From Candidatus Magasanikbacteria bacterium GW2011_GWA2_56_11 (GTDB taxonomy: Bacteria > Patescibacteriota > Patescibacteriia > Magasanikbacterales > UBA922): DNA of 64,000 nucleotides. The stretch spans positions 1,650 through 65,649 of the forward strand of contig LCRX01000003.1 of the NCBI GenBank assembly GCA_001004885.1, given 5' to 3'. The notes under the pieces were generated by a model. The model searched no databases, had not been told where the DNA came from, and saw only the letters and a program-made list of their open reading frames with translations. Shown piece by piece: positions 4,981 to 64,000 of the stretch (within the stretch, counting starts at the first letter, position 1; each line of letters opens with the position of its first letter). The position numbers and the translations under genes are program-made.

Positions 4981-5061
4981 TGCCGCGGGAGAGACTCGAA
5001 CTCTCATAGGTTGCCCTGCTTGCTCCTAAAGCAAGTGCGTCTACCATTTCGCCACCGCGGC
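4981..5061 (-). tRNA. tRNA-Leu (anticodon UAG)
   Basis: The minus strand reads GCCGCGGTGGCGAAATGGTAGACGCACTTGCTTTAGGAGCAAGCAGGGCAACCTATGAGAGTTCGAGTCTCTCCCGCGGCA. A 7-bp acceptor stem, a TTCGAGT T-loop, anticodon loop TTTAGGA and a long variable arm are all present. Confidence 0.8.
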
Positions 5062-33811: not shown

Positions 33812-34834
33812 ATGCCCAGAATAAAGTTCGTTAAAATTCAACCCTGGGACTTCTTTCTCAAAGTCAAAAAAGCCAGCGGCCTTTCGTTCAAAGAAATGGC
33901 CCAGCTATGCGCCACGCACCGGCGCACGCTTTCCGACTGGAAAAGAGGCCGGTACCTAATGCCATTGTCGGCCTATGAGGCTTTATTTAAGCTAGGCGGA
34001 AATGAAGAGGTGATTTCAATCATTCCAGATTATAGCCACGCCTCGGCAGCCGGCAAGAAAGGAGCGGCGCGACGTTACCAAATCCATGGGAATCCCGGCA
34101 CGGATGAAGGCCGGAAACGCGGTGGATTGGCCGCGGTAAGAAAACTTACCGCAATTTACCCCCATGCCATAATCACTAAATTCCAAAGGAGACGGCCGAT
34201 TGCCTTGCCGGAACTTTCCTGCAATCTGGCGGAAATGATCGGAATTATTCTGGGAGATGGGCACGTTAGCGCTTACCAGACTACTGTTACACTGCACTCA
34301 CTGGACGACCGGTTATACTCTGGATACGTAGCCAAGCAATTTGAATCCCTCTTCCAAATTAAACCGGCCATATACGAGCGGCAATCCACACTGGTGATTA
34401 CCGTTGCCCGCGTGGCTTTATCCGAATACCTGCACTGCCAACACGGACTTTCAAGCAATAAAGTGAAGACACAGGTGTCAGTGCCGTCGTGGATAGTACG
34501 CCATGATAAATTTGCCCAAGCGTGCGTACGGGGGTTAATTGACACTGATGGCTGTTTCTATGTCGACCGGCACCAATATCTGAATAAACGATATCTTAAT
34601 TGCGCCCTGAACTTTACCAATCGTTCCTTGCCGATACTAAAGTTCGTGAAAGACACCCTGAGCAGCCTGGACTTGCATCCGACACAAAAGACGCCGTACA
34701 GTATTTTTCTGCGGCGGGAAAGGGAAATCGAGCGCTACTTCAAGGAAATCGGATCTAACAATCCCAAACATACAGATAAATTTAAGAAGTTCATCGCCAA
34801 CAAAACACACGGAGGAGTACCGAAGCGGTCATAA
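33812..34834 (+). CDS. Free-standing double-motif LAGLIDADG homing endonuclease with an N-terminal HTH-like region
   Basis: Two LAGLIDADG motifs: LAEMIGIILGDGHVS and VRGLIDTDGCFYVD. The last 8 codons overlap the 5' end of tRNA-Ser(CGA). Confidence 0.8.
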   Translation: MPRIKFVKIQPWDFFLKVKKASGLSFKEMAQLCATHRRTLSDWKRGRYLMPLSAYEALFKLGGNEEVISIIPDYSHASAAGKKGAARRYQIHGNPGTDEGRKRGGLAAVRKLTAIYPHAIITKFQRRRPIALPELSCNLAEMIGIILGDGHVSAYQTTVTLHSLDDRLYSGYVAKQFESLFQIKPAIYERQSTLVITVARVALSEYLHCQHGLSSNKVKTQVSVPSWIVRHDKFAQACVRGLIDTDGCFYVDRHQYLNKRYLNCALNFTNRSLPILKFVKDTLSSLDLHPTQKTPYSIFLRREREIERYFKEIGSNNPKHTDKFKKFIANKTHGGVPKRS

Positions 34835-34902
34835 CGGGACGGTCTCGAAAACCGTTTGCCCTCAAAAGGGGCACGAGGGTTCGAATCCCTCCTCCTCCGC
34901 CA
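34811..34902 (+). tRNA. tRNA-Ser (anticodon CGA), CCA encoded
   Basis: GGAGGAG ta CCGAagcggtcataaCGGG aCGGTCTCGAAAACCGt long variable arm GAGGGTTCGAATCCCTC CTCCTCC g CCA. Confidence 0.8.
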
Positions 34903-34921
34903 AATTATTCATACACCCAAT

Positions 34922-35008
34922 GGAGAGATGGCTGAGCGGTTGAAGGCGGCGGTCTTGAAAACCGTTGAGGATGAAAGTCCTCCGTGGGTTCGAATCCCAC
35001 TCTCTCCG
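34922..35008 (+). tRNA. tRNA-Ser (anticodon UGA)
   Basis: GGAGAGA tg GCTGagcggttgaaGGCG gCGGTCTTGAAAACCGt variable arm CGTGGGTTCGAATCCCAC TCTCTCC g. Confidence 0.8.
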
Positions 35009-55408: not shown

Positions 55409-56212
55409 ATGTCGGTTATGTCCAGAAAATATCTGGTGGCCTACGCCAACGGCCTGTCTAGCGCTTTTCAATACCGGCTCAACCTGGGGCTGTTGTTTGT
55501 CAGCCATCTGGTTAGCCTTTCGGGCCTGGTCTATCTTTGGCTAGCCGTTTACGCCGCCGGCGAGAGCCTGCCCGGCTACTCTTTGCCGGAAATAATTACC
55601 TACTACCTGGTGCTCACGGCTCTGCGCATTACCATAGCCGACGGGATCGGAATGGGGTTCAAAGTATCCGAAGATATTCGGGAAGGCCTGATTACCCATT
55701 ACCTCTTGAAGCCTTTCAGCTATTCTCTGGAACAAGGTCTGCTGCTCGCCGCCCAGGCCAGCATCAACCTGGTCTTTGCCTTGCCCCCGTTCATTATTTT
55801 GGGATTATTCATAAACCGGTTTATCGAGCTGCCCGACCTTGGCGATATCGCGGCTTTTGCGCTGCTGACGTTAATCGGCCTGATCTTTTATTACCTAGTT
55901 TATTTATTATCAGCTTTCTCGTCTTTTTGGATCGAAAAAGGCAGCACCGCTATCTATGCCATGATTGTCGTCAGCCTGCTCCTCAGCGGTTCGCTCCTGC
56001 CTTTGGATCTTTTTCCGGACTGGTTCCAAACCGCGAGCCGGTACGCGCCCTTTCAGTATCTCATGTACGTGCCGATCCAGGGATTCTTAGGCCAGATCAC
56101 CGACTGGAGCCGGACGCTGGCGGTTGCCGCAGTCTGGATAGTCCTTTTGGCGGCGGCAGCCCGGACCGTCTGGCTCCGGGGCCTCAAAAAATACGAAGCT
56201 GCCGGCCGGTAA
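55409..56212 (+). CDS. ABC-2-type-permease-like 6-TM protein, paralog 1 (type A, ends ...KKYEAAGR)
   Basis: About 260 aa. It is homologous to the next five ORFs, with N-terminus ...AFQYRLNLGLLFVSHL and C-terminus W...LRGLKKYE. Confidence 0.6.
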   Translation: MSVMSRKYLVAYANGLSSAFQYRLNLGLLFVSHLVSLSGLVYLWLAVYAAGESLPGYSLPEIITYYLVLTALRITIADGIGMGFKVSEDIREGLITHYLLKPFSYSLEQGLLLAAQASINLVFALPPFIILGLFINRFIELPDLGDIAAFALLTLIGLIFYYLVYLLSAFSSFWIEKGSTAIYAMIVVSLLLSGSLLPLDLFPDWFQTASRYAPFQYLMYVPIQGFLGQITDWSRTLAVAAVWIVLLAAAARTVWLRGLKKYEAAGR

Positions 56213-56215
56213 ATT

Positions 56216-57001
56216 ATGAAATACTTTTCTCTCTATCTCGCGTTCTTCCGGGCGAACTTGATGAAAGACATGGCCTACCGGGGCAACTTTCTTTTAGGCT
56301 CCTTGACTACGGCCCTGGAGTCGCTCATGGTCTATTTCGGCGTGGCGGTTCTTTTCCGCCACGTTACGACCATCGCGCAGTGGACCTATGAAGAGATGCT
56401 CATTCTCCTCGGGGTCTACATGATCAGCAACAGCGCGGCCTGGCTGCTCTTCCGGGCGGGCGTGTCCGATCTGGACCGGACAATTAACCGGGGCGACCTC
56501 GATTGGTACCTGGTCAAGCCGATCGATGCCCAATTCCTCTCCACCGTTACCCGCATAGATATAGAAGACGCGGCGCGCTCGCTGGTCGGATTGGTGCTGG
56601 TCGGTTTGGGCCTCTATCGAGGCACGGCCGAGGTAAGTTTCTGGAGACTTTTAGCCTTTGTCATCACTTTTCTGGCCGGCCAGGCGATCCTCTATAGCAT
56701 CCAGCTCGCTCTCAAAACCGTCAGCTTCAAATCGCTCCAGGGCTGGGCCACCAACAGCATCGCTTTCCGCTTTCACGATCTGGCGCAATACCCGACGGAT
56801 ATTTACCGCGGCCTCATGCGCGTCGTCTACACGTTCGTTTTGCCGCTCGCCTTCATCGCCACCGTGCCGGCCAAGGCGCTGATCGGCGAGATCACCGCCG
56901 GACTTTTCGCCCTCTCGCTCCTCATCGCCGCGGCCGCTCTGGCCATCACCCGCCTGATCTGGAAACGGGCGCTGCGGACTTATACGAGCGCGTCGAGTTA
57001 G
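56216..57001 (+). CDS. ABC-2-type-permease-like protein, paralog 2 (type B, ends ...RTYTSASS)
   Basis: Starts 3 nt after paralog 1, and carries the B-type C-terminus YTSASS. Confidence 0.6.
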   Translation: MKYFSLYLAFFRANLMKDMAYRGNFLLGSLTTALESLMVYFGVAVLFRHVTTIAQWTYEEMLILLGVYMISNSAAWLLFRAGVSDLDRTINRGDLDWYLVKPIDAQFLSTVTRIDIEDAARSLVGLVLVGLGLYRGTAEVSFWRLLAFVITFLAGQAILYSIQLALKTVSFKSLQGWATNSIAFRFHDLAQYPTDIYRGLMRVVYTFVLPLAFIATVPAKALIGEITAGLFALSLLIAAAALAITRLIWKRALRTYTSASS

Positions 57002-57150
57002 AGCCCACTCCAAAAATAATTCGGAGCCGGTTTTGAGCGAAAAATGTCCGGGTTGAAGTAGGCATAATGGTATTATGGCGACGAAACCCCGGAAATTTTT
57101 CGCTCAAAACCGGCTCGAAAATGAGCCAGAATTATTTTTGGGAGTGGGCT
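57002..57150. repeat. About 150-bp imperfect inverted repeat (45-57-nt arms flanking a 48-nt centre with a nested palindrome cataat-ggt-attatg), filling the gap between permease pairs 1-2 and 3-4
   Basis: agcccactccaaaaataattcggagccggttttgagcgaaaaat ... atttttcgctcaaaaccggctc[gaaaatgagccag]aattatttttgggagtgggct. Confidence 0.6.
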
Positions 57151-57157
57151 AAATAGT

Positions 57158-57949
57158 ATGAAACACAGAATTTTATTCAAAAACTACCTCAGCCATTTTC
57201 TCGCCTACCGTGCCCGGGTCGGTATCTGGGCCGTAACCGACGTCGCCGAGTTTCTCGTCTTCCCGTTTATCTGGCTAGCTGTCATAACCGATAATATCGG
57301 CATCGAGGGGTACGGCCGCGCCGACATTATAACTTACTATTTGATAGCCGCCTTCGTCAGCCTGGTCTTCACCTCGCACCCGGCGCGCAAAGTCAAAGAA
57401 GACATTATGCAAGGCGGCCTCAACGCCTTCCTGGTCAAACCCCTGGGGCATTTTAGCCGGCACCTAATTGAACAGGCTACATACAAAATTTTATCCTTAG
57501 GCATAGGATTGGGCCTCATGCTGCCGCTCGTCTACTTTCTGCCGGAATATACGTATCTGCCGCTATCCTGGACAACTTGGGTGTTTTTTACTCTGTCCCT
57601 CTTGATTGCGTTTTTTGTCTCCCACCTGTTGGAGTATACCCTCGGCCTCGCCTCGTTCTGGTTCGGCGAAATCCGGGCGCTCCAACACGTGCTTGAGATT
57701 GCCTCGATTTTGTTCTCCGGCCGACTGGCGCCCCTGGTGTTCTTCCCTCCGCTGTTCGCGAGCCTAGCCGAATGGCTGCCGTTTGCCGCTTTGGCGTCTA
57801 TTCCGGCGGACATTTACCTTGAACGGATGACCGCTGCCGAGTCAGTCGGTCAGTTGTCCATCTCCGCCCTTTGGCTATTCGTCTTGTCTGGCCTGGCCAT
57901 CCTCGCATGGAAAAGGGGCTTACGGCGTTATGAAGGTATTGGCATATGA
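57158..57949 (+). CDS. ABC-2-type-permease-like protein, paralog 3 (type A, ends ...RRYEGIGI)
   Basis: Homology to paralogs 1 and 5. Confidence 0.6.
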   Translation: MKHRILFKNYLSHFLAYRARVGIWAVTDVAEFLVFPFIWLAVITDNIGIEGYGRADIITYYLIAAFVSLVFTSHPARKVKEDIMQGGLNAFLVKPLGHFSRHLIEQATYKILSLGIGLGLMLPLVYFLPEYTYLPLSWTTWVFFTLSLLIAFFVSHLLEYTLGLASFWFGEIRALQHVLEIASILFSGRLAPLVFFPPLFASLAEWLPFAALASIPADIYLERMTAAESVGQLSISALWLFVLSGLAILAWKRGLRRYEGIGI

Positions 57950-58734
57950 GAAAATACCTCTTTATTTATCTAACTCTTTTAAAAAATGCCTTCTCGTACG
58001 AAGCACAGTACCGGCGTGACACTTGGCTGCATTTAGCCTCCAACTTTCTCTACCTTGGCCTGCTGTCCGCCACAATTGAAGTGGTTTTCCGGCATACGCC
58101 GGAACTTAACGGCTGGAGCCGGGAAGAGACTTACCTTTTAATGCTTCTTTGGATTATCGCCGACGAACTGTTTACCATGGTCTCCAAGCATAATCTCTGG
58201 AACCTGCCTGGCCTCGTTACCGACGGCGCGCTGGACGCCTATCTCACCAAGCCGGCAAATACCTTGTTCCTAGTCAGCACCAAGATATTTCTCATGCGCG
58301 CGGGATACCGCCTATTTATACAAATTGGATTCCTCGTTTGGCTGGTCTGGAGTTTTGATTTTGCTCCTTCCCTCTGGCACGGTGCTATGGCCATAGTTTT
58401 AGTGATAGGCGGCGCCTTGGTTCACTATTCTTTCTCGCTCATTCTCAATACTCTCAGTTTCTGGTGGCTCAGAATAGACAACATCAACGATGCCTGGGAG
58501 AGTCTGAGCAATATGGGCCGCTACCCACTCGGAATTTTTCCCAAATTTGTTCGCGTGCTTTGCCTCACTTTCCTGCCGATCGCGTTCATCGGCTATATCC
58601 CGGCTGCCGCCATGACCGGCCGGGCCGGGTGGTGGCTGATACTGTATGCGTTTGCCTTTACCGCGCTCATATTCTATTTCGCGGTCAGTTTCTGGAAGTA
58701 CGCCCTCCGGCGCTACACCAGCGCCTCGAGCTAA
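57946..58734 (+). CDS. ABC-2-type-permease-like protein, paralog 4 (type B, ends ...RRYTSASS)
   Basis: ATGA overlap with paralog 3, and the B-type C-terminus. Confidence 0.6.
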   Translation: MRKYLFIYLTLLKNAFSYEAQYRRDTWLHLASNFLYLGLLSATIEVVFRHTPELNGWSREETYLLMLLWIIADELFTMVSKHNLWNLPGLVTDGALDAYLTKPANTLFLVSTKIFLMRAGYRLFIQIGFLVWLVWSFDFAPSLWHGAMAIVLVIGGALVHYSFSLILNTLSFWWLRIDNINDAWESLSNMGRYPLGIFPKFVRVLCLTFLPIAFIGYIPAAAMTGRAGWWLILYAFAFTALIFYFAVSFWKYALRRYTSASS

Positions 58735-58896
58735 AACTTACTTCAAAATGAGGTCATCTCTGGCAAGCGGGGCCGGCAGATTAAATTTTGAGCTCCGAGG
58801 ACGAGTGCGAGAGCGAAGCGGGTATCCCTCCGCAGGAGCTCGTCCCGCGAGCTCACCTACCGGCTCGATTTCGCGCTCGGGCGCCTGCGCCACCTG

Positions 58897-59598
58897 GTGG
58901 TGCTGCTTTTGCTCTATTACGTTTGGCGCACGCTCACCTCCGGCACAGGCGCTTTTGCCCTCTACAGCGATGAGCAGCTCATGACTTATCTATTCGGCGG
59001 CAATATTCTGCGCGCTTTTGTCTTCGGCACCCAGTCGCGCCGCGTCGCTCTCGAAATAAACGACGGCGCCTTCTCTCAGTACCTGGTTAAACCGGCCAAT
59101 CATTTCTGGTACTGTTACGCCCGCGAGCTGGCCGGAAGAATTTTGGCGACCATAAGCGCGGCAGTTGAAGCGGCCGGCATTTCTTTGCTGCTCGACATAA
59201 ATTTTTTCTGGCAAACAGATCCAGTTCTCTTGTCCTGGTTCGCGCTCGCCGTCCTCCTGGCTCACATTCTCTACTATTTCCTCAGCTACGGCATGAGCCT
59301 CATCGCTTTTTGGTCGCGCGAGGCCATGGGACCGCGTTTTTTGTTTGAGTGGCTCCTGGAGTTTGCCTCGGGCGCGTATTTCCCTTTGGATATACTCAAA
59401 GCCGCCTTTGCGCGCATCTTCATTTTTCTGCCTTTTGCCTATCTCATTTTCTCTCCTCTAAGCCTGTACTTGGGCGGCAGCGGACCACCGGGCTGGATTG
59501 TCGCCGCCTGGCAGCTCCTCTGGATAGCTATCGCTGCCCTGTCGGTATTTTTCTTGTGGCGCCGGGGACTCCGGCGCTACTCCGGGGAGGGAATTTAG
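58897..59598 (+). CDS. ABC-2-type-permease-like protein, paralog 5 (type A, ends ...RRYSGEGI); N-terminus apparently disrupted
   Basis: The homologous N-terminal residues (RVSLRRSSRELTYRLDFALGRLRHL) are encoded in-frame upstream but without an ATG, and a stop lies at 58789. The nearest ATG (58748) is in another frame. This may be a pseudogene, a sequence error, or a GTG/CTG start. Confidence 0.45.
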   Translation: MVLLLLYYVWRTLTSGTGAFALYSDEQLMTYLFGGNILRAFVFGTQSRRVALEINDGAFSQYLVKPANHFWYCYARELAGRILATISAAVEAAGISLLLDINFFWQTDPVLLSWFALAVLLAHILYYFLSYGMSLIAFWSREAMGPRFLFEWLLEFASGAYFPLDILKAAFARIFIFLPFAYLIFSPLSLYLGGSGPPGWIVAAWQLLWIAIAALSVFFLWRRGLRRYSGEGI

Positions 59599-59599
59599 T

Positions 59600-60382
59600 A
59601 TGCGCTACGCCCGCGTCTGGAAACAACTGACCGTGTGTTCATTCTCCACCTGGTCGTCCAACCGTCTGGACGCCGTTACCTATTGGCTGGGCAAACTTAT
59701 CCGCTTCGGCTTTTTTTGGCTGTTCGTCGCCTCGGTCTTTGAATTCACGCCGGCTTTTGCCGGCTACGGAAAATACGAGGTCCTGCTTTTCTTTTTGACC
59801 TTCAATCTGGTGGACGTGGTTACCCAGGCGTTTTTCCGCGGCATTTACCTGTTCAGCGACGATATCAACAAAGGCAACTTCGACTTTGTGCTCACCAAGC
59901 CGGTAAACCCGCTGTTCTATTCTCTGGCTCGCCTGACCGACCTGCTGGATTTTATTTTTCTTATCCCCCTCGTCGGCTTTCTCGCCTACGTAATCGCCAA
60001 GCTCGGGCTCGACCTCACTCTGGCCTCTTACCTGCTTTATCTGGCATTCGTCGGCGTCGGCATCATTTTGGCGCTCGCCATACATATTCTCTCGGCCGCG
60101 GCCACTATGTGGACCATGGAGAGCGATCACATTATCTGGCTCTACCGCGAAACCATGACCGTCGGCCGTTTCCCGCCGGAGGTTCTATCGCCCGCGCTGC
60201 AATTTGTCTTTACCTATCTTATGCCGGTTATTCTCATCGTGGCCTATCCGGCGAAAATCATACTGGGTCTGATCGGCCCGGGAGATATTGCCCGCCTCGG
60301 CGCGGTGACGGTCATATTCACGACCGTGGCTCTCGGGCTCTGGCGGGTGAGCCTGCGGCACTACGCGAGCGCTTCGAGCTGA
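59600..60382 (+). CDS. ABC-2-type-permease-like protein, paralog 6 (type B, ends ...RHYASASS)
   Basis: Starts 1 nt after paralog 5, and carries the B-type C-terminus. Confidence 0.6.
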   Translation: MRYARVWKQLTVCSFSTWSSNRLDAVTYWLGKLIRFGFFWLFVASVFEFTPAFAGYGKYEVLLFFLTFNLVDVVTQAFFRGIYLFSDDINKGNFDFVLTKPVNPLFYSLARLTDLLDFIFLIPLVGFLAYVIAKLGLDLTLASYLLYLAFVGVGIILALAIHILSAAATMWTMESDHIIWLYRETMTVGRFPPEVLSPALQFVFTYLMPVILIVAYPAKIILGLIGPGDIARLGAVTVIFTTVALGLWRVSLRHYASASS

Positions 60383-60418: not shown

Positions 60419-61313
60419 TTAGTGGGCCTTGTTTATCCATACCTCATTTTTCAATTCCTCTTCTATTTTATAACCCTGGCAATGGCCTAGAATACCCAGG
60501 TAAGATTGTACGGTCTGGTCCAGCCGGTAATCATCGCCAATGCCCCGGTTAAACTCATCTGTCTTCCGGCGCACCTTGGCGAACATCCGGTGTTTGGTTT
60601 TGGCGCGGATTACCCGGTAGCGCGGCAAAAGAACATCCCCGAGCCAGTCTAAAATCATCGGCGTAGCGAAAATAATAATGTTCCCGTAAATGATGTTTGA
60701 CGAAATAATCGAGCTCGGAAAGGTAGACATTGGCGAAAATCTGACTCGTCAAATTGCCGATTGGCATCCCCTTTCCCGACATCCCGGGCGTAGAAAAACT
60801 TCGTATCACTTTTTCTACAAGCCACATAACTTCGGTGTCCCCTAGTTTATTTATAAGCAACTGCAGCAAAATCTCATGGTCAACCGACGCAAAGAATTTT
60901 TTAATGTCCATCTTGAGAGACCACACCGTTTGGTTATGATTCTTACTGGCTTTCCTTAATGCCCTATCTACCGCGCCAACCGCCACATGAACCCCTTTGC
61001 CCCTCTGACACGAATACGAATGATGAATAAACGTCGGCTGGAGTATTGGTTCCAAAAACCGGAACAGAAGGTGATGCACAATACGATCCCGTACCGTTGC
61101 CTTGTTAATGATCCGAAATTTGGGGTCATAAATGTGGAAGGTCTCATACCCTTGATGTTGGTATGTTTTTGTGCTAAGCTCGTCCTGTAATTGAAAGAGA
61201 TTATCCTCTAAATATCTCTCAAAGAGGAGGACATCGGCTTTATTCTGTTTACCTTTTCTAAATTCGTACCAGGCATCGAGTATATTTTCGAGCCTAATCA
61301 GTTTTGAGTACAT
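60419..61313 (-). CDS. Diversity-generating retroelement (DGR) reverse transcriptase; the reading frame is interrupted (frameshift plus an apparent ~40-aa deletion between the YADD motif and the GxDFLGY-like motif)
   Basis: MYSKLIRLENILDAWYEFRKGKQNKADVLLFERYLEDNLFQLQDELSTKTYQHQGYETFHIYDPKFRIINKATVRDRIVHHLL...SYSCQRGKGVHVA...MPIGNLTSQIFANVYLSELD...YFRYADDF runs in one frame (61313-60651). The C-terminal ...PMILDWLGDVLLPRYRVIRAKTKHRMFAKVRRKTDEF...QSYLGILGHCQGYKI is in another frame (to 60419). The pattern matches DGR RTs such as Bordetella phage Brt. Confidence 0.8.
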
Positions 61314-61346
61314 AGTTTTTATGATCACCAATACCACCAAGGAAAG

Positions 61347-61356
61347 CCCCCCCCCC
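61347..61356. repeat. C10 (G10 on the other strand) homopolymer tract in the 83-bp divergent RT/avd intergenic region
   Basis: ggaaagCCCCCCCCCCtcagc. Confidence 0.8.
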
Positions 61357-61396
61357 TCAGCAATTTTTACGAACAGGTTCTTCTCAGGTAGATGAA

Positions 61397-61726
61397 GTGC
61401 CAATCTTAAAGAAAACAATTGATTTGTATAAAACGTACTATGTATACGCGCAGCTCTTCCCGAAGAAAGATAAGTATACACTCGGTGCAACGTGTGAGCG
61501 TTACCTAATTTCGGTTATTGAACTATTACTTGAAGCAACCTACCTGCCCAAAGAAACGAAACGGGCTAGGCTTATGCTTGCCAACAGTAAATTTGAAGTC
61601 CTGAAAGTATTTATACGACTTCTCAAAGAGCTGAACGTTATTGACCAGAAAAAATATATCATCCTCCAAACCATGATCCAGGATATTGGGAGGATGTTTG
61701 GCGGGTGGATGAGATCGCTCACCTAA
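61397..61726 (+). CDS. avd: DGR accessory variability determinant (Avd; four-helix-bundle protein)
   Basis: A 109-aa basic protein with FPKKDKYTLGATCERYLISVIELLLEA...IGRMFGGWMRS, matching the Avd/TIGR02436 pattern (compare BPP-1 bAvd ...VGRILGSWIARV). Confidence 0.7.
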   Translation: MPILKKTIDLYKTYYVYAQLFPKKDKYTLGATCERYLISVIELLLEATYLPKETKRARLMLANSKFEVLKVFIRLLKELNVIDQKKYIILQTMIQDIGRMFGGWMRSLT

Positions 61727-61741
61727 ATGACCGAATACAGC

Positions 61742-61772
61742 GAAGCCTCGACGTATGTGTCGAGGCTTCTTT
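61742..61772 (+). terminator. Perfect 11-bp-stem hairpin (gaagcctcgac-gtatgt-gtcgaggcttc) between avd and the TR; a weak avd terminator and/or the 3' flank of the TR on the other strand
   Basis: A perfect inverted repeat, with only 3 T residues after it on the + strand. Confidence 0.4.
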
Positions 61773-61787
61773 AGGCTATAGGCACTT

Positions 61788-61901
61788 CCAGAGCACGACC
61801 ACCCCGCCGGAGTAGTTCTCGTTCGCGTCGAGGTTCCTGTTGTCGAAGTCGAGCTTCGCGTCGTTCGGGTTGAAGTACAGCGAGTTCTCGGGGTCCTGCC
61901 A
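61788..61901 (-). repeat. DGR template repeat (TR), read on the minus strand
   Basis: 114 bp identical to 62322-62435 except at about 20 positions. Every one of those is an adenine in the minus-strand TR (T on +). The TR carries multiple AAC codons (NSLYFNPNDAKLDFDNRNLDANENYSGGVVVLW). Confidence 0.85.
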
Positions 61902-62187
61902 AAATGCGCTCTTTTCCGTCCGTAATCACCGAAGACAGAGCTTCTCCACTACAAGCCGCTCCATCTCCTGAATTTTATGCGGTTCCAGGATGAACCAAAG
62001 AAAAAAACACGCAGTGCCTATATCTTTCGTATACCCTCCGGCGATGTGAGAAAAGCAACCATTCACCTCCAGACTCCGATACGTTTCCAAAGATATATAA
62101 TTTCGGCGACGATAATCCTTATTCAGAACTATCGTGCATGAGCCTACTTTCGGTTGAGAAGTATACCAGTTTTGTATAAAAACACGA

Positions 62188-62236
62188 AGGCGGGCCATGG
62201 CTCGAAGCGTCGAAACGCTGCGCCGATGGCCCGCCT
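62188..62236 (-). terminator. GC-rich hairpin (ggcgggccat...atggcccgcc with an inner palindrome), followed on the minus strand by a T-run; terminator of the DGR target gene and/or a DGR cruciform element
   Basis: aggcgggccatggctcgaagcgtcgaaacgctgcgccgatggcccgcct. The minus strand continues tcgtgtttttatac. Confidence 0.5.
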
Positions 62237-62312
62237 GAAATGGTGGGTGTCCAAGGGACCAAGTGACCAAGGGTCCTTGATCCAAGGGACAAGTGAGACA
62301 AGAGAACGAGGG

Positions 62313-63242
62313 CTAGGACTGCCAGAGCACGACCACCCCGCCGGAGCAGAGCCCGTGCGCGACGAGGTTCCCGATGCCGAAGCCGAGCTTCGCGTCGCCC
62401 GGGCAGAAGAACAGCGAGCGCCCGGGGCCCCGCCACAGGTTCGCGGGGCAGTCGAGGGCGGGCGTCATGCCGTCGCGGCCGAGGACCTCGGAGTAGCCGA
62501 TGAAGCCCATGGCCGGCTCGAAGGCACCGGTCAGGAGGACGTCGTTCGGGAACTGCTGGACCATCGTGCGGTCCGCGAGAATGCCGAAGCCCTGGAGGCA
62601 GGTGGGGAAGTAGACACCGACCGTCGGGCCCTGCCGCATCGCCTCGATGAGGCACTCGTGCCGGGTGCCGGAGACGACCGTGACCTGCCCCGCGAGCGTG
62701 CCCCGGCGCCAGTTCTCGAAGGTGCGCTCGGGGAACGCCTCGGCGTAGGCCAGGCCGACGGCCGCGAGGAACATGTCCTCGAGGACGGCGCCGTAGTCCA
62801 CGACCTCGCAGTGCGGGAAGCAGACCGGGAGGTAGGTGCCCTGGAGGAGGTTCGCGATCTGCCGGTCGCTCTTCACCCGCTCGATGACCGCGAGGCCCCG
62901 CTCACGGAACTGGTCGGCCGTGACGAAGGTCTGTCCGGGCATGTGCCGCGTGAACCGGGCGTGCACCGCCGCGTAGTCGACCGTGGGCTGCGCGAGGTGG
63001 TAGCCCCGGTCGGCGTCGACGATCTCCTCGGTCATGCCGGGCAGCGGGATCCAGCGGCCGTTCCGGTCGACGAGCTTGACCGTGGTGTCCTGGACGACGA
63101 TCTTGAGCTCTCCGGAGAGCACGCCCTGGAGGATCGTCTCCACCTGGGACTCATCGCCGGTGAGACCGCGGGCCACCTTGCGGATGATCGCGGACTTCTG
63201 ACCGTCGCTGAGACCGGACACCACCTCTTCAAACGTCTTCAT
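62313..63242 (-). CDS. DGR variable (target) protein; the C-terminal domain carries the VR (C-type-lectin/FGE-like fold inferred)
   Basis: A 309-aa ORF with about 65% GC. The VR falls in its last ~40 codons, and an AAGGAG RBS lies 7 nt upstream of the ATG. Confidence 0.75.
   Translation of the reverse strand: MKTFEEVVSGLSDGQKSAIIRKVARGLTGDESQVETILQGVLSGELKIVVQDTTVKLVDRNGRWIPLPGMTEEIVDADRGYHLAQPTVDYAAVHARFTRHMPGQTFVTADQFRERGLAVIERVKSDRQIANLLQGTYLPVCFPHCEVVDYGAVLEDMFLAAVGLAYAEAFPERTFENWRRGTLAGQVTVVSGTRHECLIEAMRQGPTVGVYFPTCLQGFGILADRTMVQQFPNDVLLTGAFEPAMGFIGYSEVLGRDGMTPALDCPANLWRGPGRSLFFCPGDAKLGFGIGNLVAHGLCSGGVVVLWQS
62322..62435 (-). repeat. DGR variable repeat (VR) within the 3' end of the target gene
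   Basis: See the TR entry. The VR encodes ...RSLFFCPGDAKLGFGIGNLVAHGLCSGGVVVLWQS, and the stop codon lies 7 nt after the VR. Confidence 0.85.
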
Positions 63243-63601: not shown

Positions 63602-64000
63602 CTATTCAATTCGCACCTCATCCAAGTAGAACGTCCCCTCGTTCGCCCCGGTATTACCCTGGATGGCAAACCCGGTAATCGTACCCCCGGCCGCGCCGAT
63701 ATCCGCGAGCGGAATAGAGACCGTCTGCCACTGACCGGCCTTCAATACGCCGTCCGGCAGATACGGGGCCAGCTTGTAGTGATTCGGCCCGGCGCCGGTT
63801 GCGTCGAACGGCACAATCTGGAGCTGCTGCCCGGCGGGCACGGTGCCGTAGAGGGTCATGGTAAGCGTCGTCCGGCCGGTGGTGTCGAGCCCTGGATGAT
63901 GGAGGAAATAACCGGCCCAGGGGCTTAGAAACTCGACCGCCAGAGCTTGCGTGCCCTGGTACACCGGGGTAGTCGTCGCGGACGCGTTTATCTCCCACGA
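63602..64000 (-). CDS. C-terminal part of a protein continuing beyond the window (beta-rich, possibly a surface or binding domain)
   Basis: The ORF is open to the window edge and ends ...GNTGANEGTFYLDEVRIE. Confidence 0.4.
   Translation of the reverse strand, partial: SWEINASATTTPVYQGTQALAVEFLSPWAGYFLHHPGLDTTGRTTLTMTLYGTVPAGQQLQIVPFDATGAGPNHYKLAPYLPDGVLKAGQWQTVSIPLADIGAAGGTITGFAIQGNTGANEGTFYLDEVRIE

Follow-up and report, generated by a model that had tools for sequence, protein, structure and literature searches.

The 64,000-nucleotide stretch of DNA analysed here (the window) holds a chromosomal DGR of the CPR type (Architecture B3; DGR clade 2), and its host is Ca. Magasanikbacteria GW2011_GWA2_56_11, to whose database entries housekeeping proteins encoded in the window are identical. 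Taken as a whole, the locus is probably best explained as a CPR-type B3 DGR with a separate TR RNA and a history of past activity, in which the RT is now dead and a C10 tract belongs to a recurrent class of repeats.

Locus layout and classification

The DGR in the window has avd on the plus strand and the RT, TR, VR and target all on the minus strand, with the following coordinates:

62313..63242, minus strand: DGR target gene (309 aa, stop included; ~70% GC)
62316..62437, minus strand: VR, occupying the 3′ end of the target up to the stop codon of its 309-aa ORF
61782..61903, minus strand: TR, 55 nt past the avd stop
61397..61726, plus strand: avd (109 aa, GTG start, stop included), divergent from the RT and convergent with the TR
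61314..61396, no strand assigned: divergent avd/RT spacer of 83 bp, identical in all 11 contigs of the locus
60419..61313, minus strand: DGR RT, a pseudogene here (RVT_1, E 8e-16; starts MYSKLIRLEN...)

Read along the minus strand, the target with its C-terminal VR is followed by a terminator-like hairpin, an extended −10 promoter, a 5′ RNA element, a linker of ~185 nt, the TR, a second hairpin, avd (plus strand, converging on the TR), the 83-bp spacer and the RT. The strands of these components, the divergent spacer and the position of the TR beyond avd are all seen in the sequence as the original prediction had described them. The strand of avd was also checked by profile matching: its product matches the Pfam family bAvd (PF22296) over residues 3–107 on the plus strand (E 4.1e-18; 66 bits against a cut-off of 40), and an antisense ORF inside avd (61540–61722, minus strand) has no Pfam match. 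The product weakly matches the Avd protein of the Bordetella phage as well (4DWL, Bbp7).

The arrangement is common to 11 distinct contigs of the locus population, which come from several samples and whose naming styles suggest several assemblers; the Avd protein is identical in all of them. That the inverted avd is a local inversion made during assembly is barely conceivable, given that the junction sequences and the arrangement are identical across these contigs, and that avd is likewise inverted in 67 of 80 loci of RT relatives from unrelated studies, among them L036 (894 kb) and L068 (560 kb, “chromosome: 1”). No point in support of such an artefact was found.

Among the relatives with an inverted avd, the TR lies on the RT-sense strand, 2–70 nt past the avd stop, in 46 of 67, so that the order TR-(avd)-RT is present in 46 to 67 of the 80; the RT relatives are almost all Patescibacteria MAGs. 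[quoted passage not shown] The window shares with these groups the order and orientation of target/VR, TR, avd on the opposite strand and RT, a host that is a groundwater CPR bacterium, a target without a recognizable domain, and the A-to-N signature at codon positions 1 and 2; it differs in that its RT is a pseudogene. An inverted avd is therefore the normal CPR gene order. The layout had been called non-canonical, which is true relative to the Bordetella-phage prototype but not overall, and a headline of a new layout would be without importance because this is already the textbook CPR arrangement. Neither PMC5758913 nor PMC8144416 mentions the repeats in the avd-RT module, the TR promoter with its 5′ RNA hairpin, or the hairpin between TR and avd that are described below.

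The prototype, BPP-1 (mtd-avd-TR-brt), has in common with the window an RT, Avd, a TR/VR pair with a GC-rich 3′ end, and adenine-specific mutagenesis. In BPP-1, however, avd has the same orientation as the other parts and sits between VR and TR, with avd-TR-brt as one unit, whereas the avd of the window is inverted and sits between TR and RT. The VR-TR interval here (median 372 nt in relatives) is, unlike that of BPP-1, geneless, and a promoter and a structured RNA are found in it instead. An ancestral avd or other gene was sought in this interval and rejected: the ORF at 61926–62285 (minus strand) has no Pfam match, gene callers call none, and stop-free stretches are short in the corresponding spacers of relatives.

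Past mutagenesis and the lesions of the reverse transcriptase

The alignment of TR with VR covers 122 nt and contains 23 mismatches, of which 21 are changes from a TR adenine to any base and two are at the ends of the alignment; every internal mismatch (21/21) is thus at a TR adenine. In the target frame, all 29 TR adenines occupy the first or second codon position. The target itself has no Pfam domain and no PDB sequence match, and belongs to a family of ~455 representative clusters; an AlphaFold model (pLDDT 65.5, with the VR disordered) gave no identification of its fold.

Two VR haplotypes occur among the 11 contigs, and all 14 differences between them (14/14) are at TR-adenine sites, while the rest of the contigs (~3 kb) differs only by a single SNP and by the RT lesions. 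Because the haplotypes differ only at TR-adenine sites, their sequences indicate that the element was active and that mutagenic retrohoming occurred in the population; this activity is past and not current in the window's lineage.

The closest homologues of the RT are CPR DGR-type RTs with IGNLTSQ and YADDF motifs. Its N-terminal part is in frame to ~60651 and its C-terminal part continues in another frame to a stop at 60419. Relative to an intact allele of 340 aa (P0001), which is otherwise identical, the window's RT carries a 128-bp frameshifting deletion after YADDF (junction ~60650/60651), which takes out ~41 residues between YADDF and D(F/W)LGY, and the substitution Y269D at 60637, within the invariant D(F/W)LGY motif. 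The original prediction does not record this interruption. With Y269D and the frameshifting deletion together, the RT of the window is, as encoded, dead.

One further contig, L007, has an RT deletion of 11 bp that is nested with the 128-bp deletion of the window; the right boundary and the Y269D SNP are common to both. Since two assemblies hold nested deletions with the same right boundary and the same substitution, one RT lineage appears to have decayed stepwise. We regard it as very unlikely that the lesion is instead an assembly error, or is bypassed, and that the DGR is still active in the window's genome. Intact 340-aa alleles do occur in the same population, and two contigs (L009 and L010) end at the deletion site, so assemblers met heterogeneity there. 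The nested deletions point the other way, as do the ~41 residues missing between two motifs and the association of haplotype with RT state, haplotype A being found in all RT-intact contigs and haplotype B in all RT-defective ones. With the RT inactivated in this lineage, its VR would now be frozen.

Transcription of the TR RNA

Four elements lie in the DNA flanking the TR:

62176..62236, minus strand: GC-rich inverted repeat I2 (arms 62226–62236 and 62188–62198), then TCGTGTTTTTAT
62160..62168, minus strand: extended −10 promoter-like motif TGGTATACT for the TR RNA, 7 nt upstream of the RNA element
62088..62152, minus strand: conserved structured 5′ RNA element (hairpin, TAGGYT...CRCCGAA), covariance model R1
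61742..61769, no strand assigned: perfect 11-bp hairpin I1, an inverted repeat separating the 3′ end of the TR from the avd stop

I2 may be either the terminator-like end of the target transcript or the counterpart of the post-IMH hairpin; relatives have a comparable hairpin and T-run upstream of the promoter motif. The motif itself, as TGnTAnnnT, precedes the conserved RNA element by 4–6 nt in ~20 of 32 relatives. The RNA element scores 63.4 bits in the window (E 5e-16), and R1 gives a single match at each locus in 39 sources, in every case RT-sense and on the upstream side of the TR, with no match elsewhere in 779 kb; the distance from its start to the TR start is ~215–310 nt (25 matches with a mapped TR). 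Covariation was counted on an alignment fitted to the model: 96% of its cells are paired and 10 of 12 pairs show compensatory changes, a result matched by none of 500 shuffles. No Rfam family corresponds to the element, and relaxing the Rfam threshold to E 1 brought up nothing relevant in the DGR region.

At the other end of the TR, I1 could be either a bidirectional terminator-like element or a 3′ structure of the TR RNA. Hairpins equivalent to it are present in 38 of 48 loci, with stems of 7–17 bp and often as an A-run, stem and T-run; the hairpin of the window is without a good U-run after it. A promoter and terminator scan of 61200–62500 made a single terminator call, within the TR. Long-range pairing within the TR RNA was rejected as a conserved feature: the pairing of a 5′ UAGGCU with AGCCUA after the TR, seen in the minimum-free-energy fold of the window, is unconserved in 26 loci (mean complement length 3.8, versus 4.1 in shuffles).

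Because a conserved promoter and a covarying 5′ RNA lie upstream of the TR and a hairpin lies between the TR and avd, the TR RNA looks like a separate transcription unit, with RT-Avd acting in trans. The TR would be transcribed alone as an RNA of ~410 nt ending at or near I1, avd and the RT would be expressed divergently from the spacer, and the RT-Avd complex would work in trans on the TR RNA to yield adenine-mutagenized cDNA that replaces the VR. By likeness to BPP-1, the TR RNA of the window would presumably also need flanking RNA on both sides.

According to the original prediction, a TR-RT co-transcript would run antisense through avd; taken as the functional template, it would entail a regulatory conflict and a new DGR layout. 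TR and RT are indeed on the same strand with avd in between, the post-TR hairpin of the window, lacking a strong U-run, may permit some read-through, and the RT frame stays open upstream across the spacer. The promoter and RNA element ~250 nt upstream of the TR, which the window shares with at least 39 relatives, and the conserved hairpin before avd nevertheless leave the co-transcript unsupported, and the layout it would make new is the catalogued B3 and the norm among relatives. The start codons of avd and the RT are, moreover, almost back to back in most relatives, so the RT must have its own promoter. In the Bordetella system, RT-Avd can reportedly use TR-containing RNA that is supplied separately, which also counts against a co-transcript. 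We therefore consider the co-transcript unlikely and retain the separate TR RNA as the reading of the locus.

Simple repeats in the avd-RT module

The avd/RT spacer contains a single long homopolymer, present as the original prediction had placed it:

61347..61356, plus strand: C10 homopolymer (G10 on the RT-sense strand), in the avd/RT spacer

Its distance to the start codon is 33 nt on the RT side (ATG) and 40 nt on the avd side (GTG), and the 64 kb of the window contain no other homopolymer of at least 10 bases and no other non-A/T simple repeat. A coding role for the tract was rejected on both sides: the RT frame is open through it, but homologues start at the conserved M1, and upstream of 61397 there is no start codon in frame with avd. 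A scan of 61200–62500 detected no sigma-70 consensus promoter in the spacer. Hexamers resembling a −10 element can be picked by hand, for example TATGAT at 61320–61325, as speculation only.

Repeats of this kind recur among relatives of the locus. Non-A/T simple repeats are present in the avd-RT module of 24 of 80 loci, compared with 6 in the remaining 597 kb (P ~3e-23), an enrichment of ~20-fold over the surrounding DNA; in the avd/RT spacers alone (2.9 kb) there are 12, against 0.5 expected (P 3e-13). In the RT clade of the window, all five members (5/5) have a poly-G tract at the same place, ranging from G7 to G12, and another clade has (GT)6–10 in the spacer, with the flank TAGGCA(GT)n conserved. 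Sister lineages carry differing repeat types at the same site (G-run, GT, CT and CCTGT). Within the gene itself, six loci have (GA)8–10 or G12 in frame within one RT loop, and in L072 the RT is out of frame through a G10 tract; no repeat-encoded peptides occur among 222 close RT homologues, whose clades have spacer repeats instead. This recurrence indicates that the C10 tract is no accident of the window locus and is one of the G/C-containing repeats that arise repeatedly in CPR avd-RT modules.

Whether these repeats are slippage-driven contingency switches, acting on avd/RT transcription from the spacer or on the RT frame from within the gene, is a question on which we would put the chances at even or slightly below. 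The turnover of unrelated repeat types at one place and the presence of (GA)n or G12 inside the RT ORF, with one allele out of frame, would be unexpected of a fixed motif, and so would the local enrichment. Lengths also vary between species (G7 to G12, GT6 to GT10) and twice between contigs with identical RT, namely G11 versus G12 and (GT)8 versus (GT)7, all of them consensus assemblies in which a one-base difference in a G run of 11–12 nt can be a sequencing or assembly error.

The competing account, to which we give appreciable but less than even weight, is that C10 and the repeats of relatives are not switches but a fixed promoter or spacer element (for example a G/C block, or a motif for protein binding or DNA structure), or a mutational by-product without a role. 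Tract length is invariant in four of six sets with multiple contigs, and in a seventh set (P0085) too; the invariant tracts outside the window's own set are G10, G11, (GT)6 and (GT)9. The conserved TAGGCA(GT)n flank could mark a sequence-specific element, and no promoter geometry can be derived. In the window's set, length heterogeneity was looked for in the assemblies and the tract is C10 in 11 of 11 contigs (consensus assemblies), in RT-intact and RT-dead lineages alike. A scan of JGI metagenomes, with a gapped pattern and then with the exact flank, found no further C-tract alleles.

The proposal that the C10 tract could toggle RT and/or avd expression by slippage thus gains comparative support: simple repeats recur and turn over in relatives, with some length polymorphism, but C10 is invariant here and no sigma-70 consensus promoter was found beside it. 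Because the RT is dead, a switch at this tract is moot in this genome. Beyond this locus, we tentatively suggest that CPR bacteria may gate their DGRs by hypermutable repeats, the C10 of the window included, with the structured 5′ TR RNA as a second novelty. Such gating would act through poly-G/C, (GT)n, (CT)n or (CCTGT)n tracts in the divergent avd/RT spacer or through (GA)n or poly-G tracts within the RT, so that targeted hypermutation would itself be turned on and off stochastically within a population.

Known examples of simple-repeat phase variation include the TA repeats between the divergent hifA and hifB promoters of Haemophilus influenzae and the poly-G/C tracts of Neisseria, Campylobacter and the Bordetella fim genes. 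The CPR repeats are like them in being G/C homopolymers or dinucleotide repeats between divergent genes or within an ORF, in their strong local enrichment, in the turnover of repeat type at a fixed site, and in some length polymorphism with one out-of-frame allele. They differ in that the putative controlled function is a targeted mutator, not a surface antigen, and in that the hosts are CPR bacteria. No report of simple-repeat phase variation in CPR bacteria was found in the searchable literature.

Should the repeats prove to be genuine switches, phase variation would govern DGR hypermutation in the very abundant CPR bacteria, one mutator being toggled by another mutational mechanism, which would help to explain the inactive look of many DGR loci in metagenomes. 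To our knowledge, no CPR DGR has been reconstituted so far; the conserved promoter and 5′ RNA hairpin mark the likely ends of the CPR TR RNA and so offer a concrete construct for reconstitution. Intact and decayed RT or avd alleles beside distinct VR haplotypes offer a natural experiment on how DGR activity is lost.

The DGR locus and its architectural class

The original prediction placed here a diversity-generating retroelement (DGR) whose reverse transcriptase (RT), template repeat (TR) and variable repeat (VR) lie on the minus strand, with the accessory gene avd on the plus strand and a C10 run in an 83-bp spacer between avd and RT. All of these parts are present.

Parts of the DGR in the window
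60419-61313, minus: RT, start at 61313, RVT_1 match
61314-61396: avd/RT spacer, 83 bp
61347-61356: C10 run, in the avd/RT spacer
61397-61726, plus: avd, GTG start
61903..61782, minus: TR, aligned to VR over 122 nt
62437..62316, minus: VR, aligned to TR over 122 nt
62313-63242, minus: target gene

The avd gene matches Pfam bAvd over nearly its full length on the plus strand (E 4.1e-18, above the curated cut-off), and the ORF antisense within it has no Pfam match. The start positions of RT (61313) and avd (61397) thus leave the 83-bp spacer between them, and the TR lies beyond avd as claimed, 55 nt past its stop codon. Each of the 21 internal mismatches in the 122-nt TR/VR alignment is TR-A to N, and 29 of 29 TR adenines fall at the first or second codon position in the target frame, which is the textbook DGR signature. 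The target protein, which has no PDB sequence match and a predicted structure of pLDDT 65.5, is one member of an uncharacterised family that comprises about 455 representative clusters. Its gene has a GC content of 70%, compared with 55–56% for the genome and about 40% for RT and avd; across 48 related loci, target genes, even upstream of the VR, average 11 points above their flanks and RT and avd 3 points below, a contrast for which no explanation was found.

An inversion introduced during assembly would produce the same gene order. Exact-protein look-ups recovered the locus in 11 distinct contigs of Rifle groundwater metagenomes, spanning several samples and several contig-naming conventions, and order, junctions and the 83-bp spacer are alike in all 11; the inverted-avd arrangement is not a mis-assembly. 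The window's housekeeping proteins have identical counterparts among the entries of Candidatus Magasanikbacteria bacterium GW2011_GWA2_56_11 (CPR/Patescibacteria). Adjoining the RT are six paralogous ABC-2 type permease genes in tandem (55409-60382, plus; PF06182 ABC2_membrane_6), whose number and lengths vary among population contigs (233 vs. 263 aa; split in L004 and L007). The target's neighbor encodes a large surface protein with PKD, PA14 and GSDH domains; its 3′ end (63602-64000, minus) falls within the window and the rest beyond it, and the protein measures 1085 aa in contig L002 and 1078 or 1046 aa in others. The window begins within a 23S rRNA gene, of which it contains the 5′ part (1-1106, minus; Rfam LSU_rRNA_bacteria, 742 bits); it also has three tRNA genes, at 4981-5061, 34811-34899 and 34922-35008.

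The layout had been regarded as non-canonical, a description that holds only against the Bordetella phage prototype. Compared with that BPP-1 cassette, the orientation of avd is reversed, and the stretch between VR and TR contains a promoter-like motif and an RNA element where BPP-1 has avd. Architecture B3, however, is already defined as "TR-(avd)-RT", with parentheses denoting the reverse strand (Wu et al., 2018, PMC5758913). Among 80 genome loci with RT relatives (35–68% identity, nearly all Patescibacteria MAGs), avd is directly upstream of RT and divergent in 67, and a TR with A-biased mismatches on the RT-sense strand lies 2–70 nt past the avd stop in 46 of these 67, the VR usually being ~370 nt further upstream. 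A canonical co-oriented avd, 350–420 bp upstream, occurs in four loci, the most distant (e.g., Bacillota); avd was not found in nine, in six of which RT is at a contig end. Since divergent avd with TR beyond it is the rule among relatives, the window's DGR is a typical B3 element: it shows every testable defining feature of this known CPR class, and novelty of the layout is not supported.

Transcription of the template repeat

With the TR beyond avd, a TR-RT co-transcript had been expected to run antisense through avd. This expectation is not supported: a promoter-like motif and an RNA element lie upstream of the TR, and a hairpin lies between the TR and avd.

Features flanking the TR in the window
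62236-62188, minus: GC hairpin plus T-run
62168-62160, minus: extended −10-like motif TGGTATACT
62152-62088, minus: 5′ RNA element, covariance model 63 bits, E 5e-16
61742-61769: TR/avd hairpin, perfect 11-bp stem, poor U-run

In relatives the VR-TR interval has a conserved length (median 372 nt), contains no gene and is conserved in nucleotide sequence across distant loci. It holds a conserved RNA element with a hairpin core, TAGGYT...stem-loop...CRCCGAA. With a covariance model made from 17 sequences, each of 39 sources (the window and 38 related loci) gives a single hit per locus, always RT-sense and upstream of the TR (about 215–310 nt from the TR start where the TR was mapped), with no match elsewhere in 779 kb on both strands; the element corresponds to no Rfam family. 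In the 39-sequence alignment fitted to the model, pairing extends to 96% of cells, and compensatory changes occur in 10 of the 12 pairs; none of 500 shuffles and no slid register come close. A long-range pairing in the window's MFE fold was rejected, as it is not conserved.

An extended −10-like motif (TGnTAnnnT, often TGATATAAT) occurs 4–6 nt upstream of the RNA element in ~20 of 32 loci, and in several it is directly preceded by a GC hairpin and T-run that looks like the terminator of the target gene. At the other end, 38 of 48 loci have a strong hairpin between the TR and the convergent avd stop, often with the A-run/stem/T-run shape typical of bidirectional terminators. The −10-like motif and RNA hairpin likely mark where a separate TR transcript starts; the TR would then be produced as its own RNA, about 410 nt long, on which RT and Avd would act in trans.

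Decay of the RT and past activity of the element

The window RT equals the intact 340-aa allele P0001 save for a 41-residue gap after YADDF, caused by a frameshifting 128-bp deletion (junction GATGATTTT/AGACTGG, about 60650/60651). L007, a 97.8-kb contig, has an 11-bp RT deletion with the same right boundary and shares with the window a T-to-G change by which the invariant Tyr in D(F/W)LGY becomes Asp (Y269D); two other contigs end at the deletion site. These lesions look like stepwise decay in one lineage, and the window RT is a pseudogene that coexists with intact 340-aa alleles in the same population. In contig L012 (scaffold_113804), avd, spacer and the RT 5′ part are identical and the RT 3′ part is strongly divergent (window about 60420-60650), as expected of a recombinant allele or of a chimeric contig.

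Two VR haplotypes occur among the contigs, and all 14 positions at which they differ are TR-adenine sites; the remaining ~3 kb is identical except for one SNP and the RT lesions. Haplotype A (12 A-to-N differences from TR) is found in RT-intact contigs, and haplotype B (21 differences) in both demonstrably RT-defective contigs, the window and L007, as well as in L009, L010, L012 and L013, whose RT is cut by the contig end or diverges. Because the differences are confined to TR adenines, mutagenic retrohoming has operated with the inverted-avd layout; in the window's lineage the VR should now be frozen. At the locus of Magasanikbacteria GW2011_GWA2_37_8, L100 lacks 110 bp within avd, L101 begins exactly at that junction, and the L098 and L099 copies are intact, which makes this another population where DGR alleles of both kinds, decayed and intact, occur together.

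Simple repeats in the avd-RT module

Within the 64 kb of the window, the C10 run is the sole homopolymer of at least 10 bases and the sole non-A/T simple repeat. It had been proposed as a phase-variation substrate, an idea that fares differently in the window and in its relatives. The tract is C10 in 11 of 11 contigs, in RT-intact and RT-dead lineages alike, a promoter scan placed no consensus promoter around it, and metagenome scans found no further C-tract alleles. Among relatives, repeats recur, their type turns over and some vary in length. All members of the clade to which the window RT belongs carry a poly-G of 7 to 12 (RT-sense) 22–33 nt upstream of the RT start, between flanks that are otherwise unalignable; a second clade has (GT)6-10 at the corresponding site (about ten loci), single loci have (CT)6 or (CCTGT)9, and sister loci can differ in type at the same site (G11 vs. 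(CT)6; (AG)10 vs. G12). In 2.9 kb of avd/RT spacers there are 12 repeats where 0.5 would be expected (P 3e-13), and the avd-RT module of 24 of 80 loci contains a non-A/T repeat, against 6 in the other 597 kb (P 3e-23).

Repeats also lie within the RT ORF. Six relatives (L045, L051, L058, L061, L071, L074) carry an in-frame repeat, either (GA)8-10, encoding RERERE, or G12, in the RT loop before G-x-PIGNLTSQ, and in L072 a G10 tract leaves the conserved C-terminal part of RT in the +1 frame. Others are found in the last codons of avd (G10-11; L024 4614-4624, L055 4615-4624) and just past the RT stop ((TGGA)8 and (GGAT)11; L060 6024-6055, L067 6087-6130).

Length was compared among contigs encoding an identical RT protein. 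It is polymorphic in two of the six sets first compared, with G11 vs. G12 in Magasanikbacteria GW2011_GWA2_37_8 and (GT)8 vs. (GT)7 in a Levybacteria locus, the latter unlikely to be a sequencing error; a seventh set, that of RT protein P0085, is invariant.

The repeats recur, change type at a fixed site, sit in both promoter regions and ORFs, and vary somewhat in length, all of which are hallmarks of contingency loci. On these patterns we propose, with slightly less than even confidence, that the repeats of CPR DGRs may be slippage-driven contingency switches. Full-text literature searches, beyond whose reach Paul et al. (2017) lay, returned no paper that connects DGRs to simple repeats or to phase variation, and the homopolymer idea, which is supported in part, is the only piece of the original prediction with real potential for novelty.
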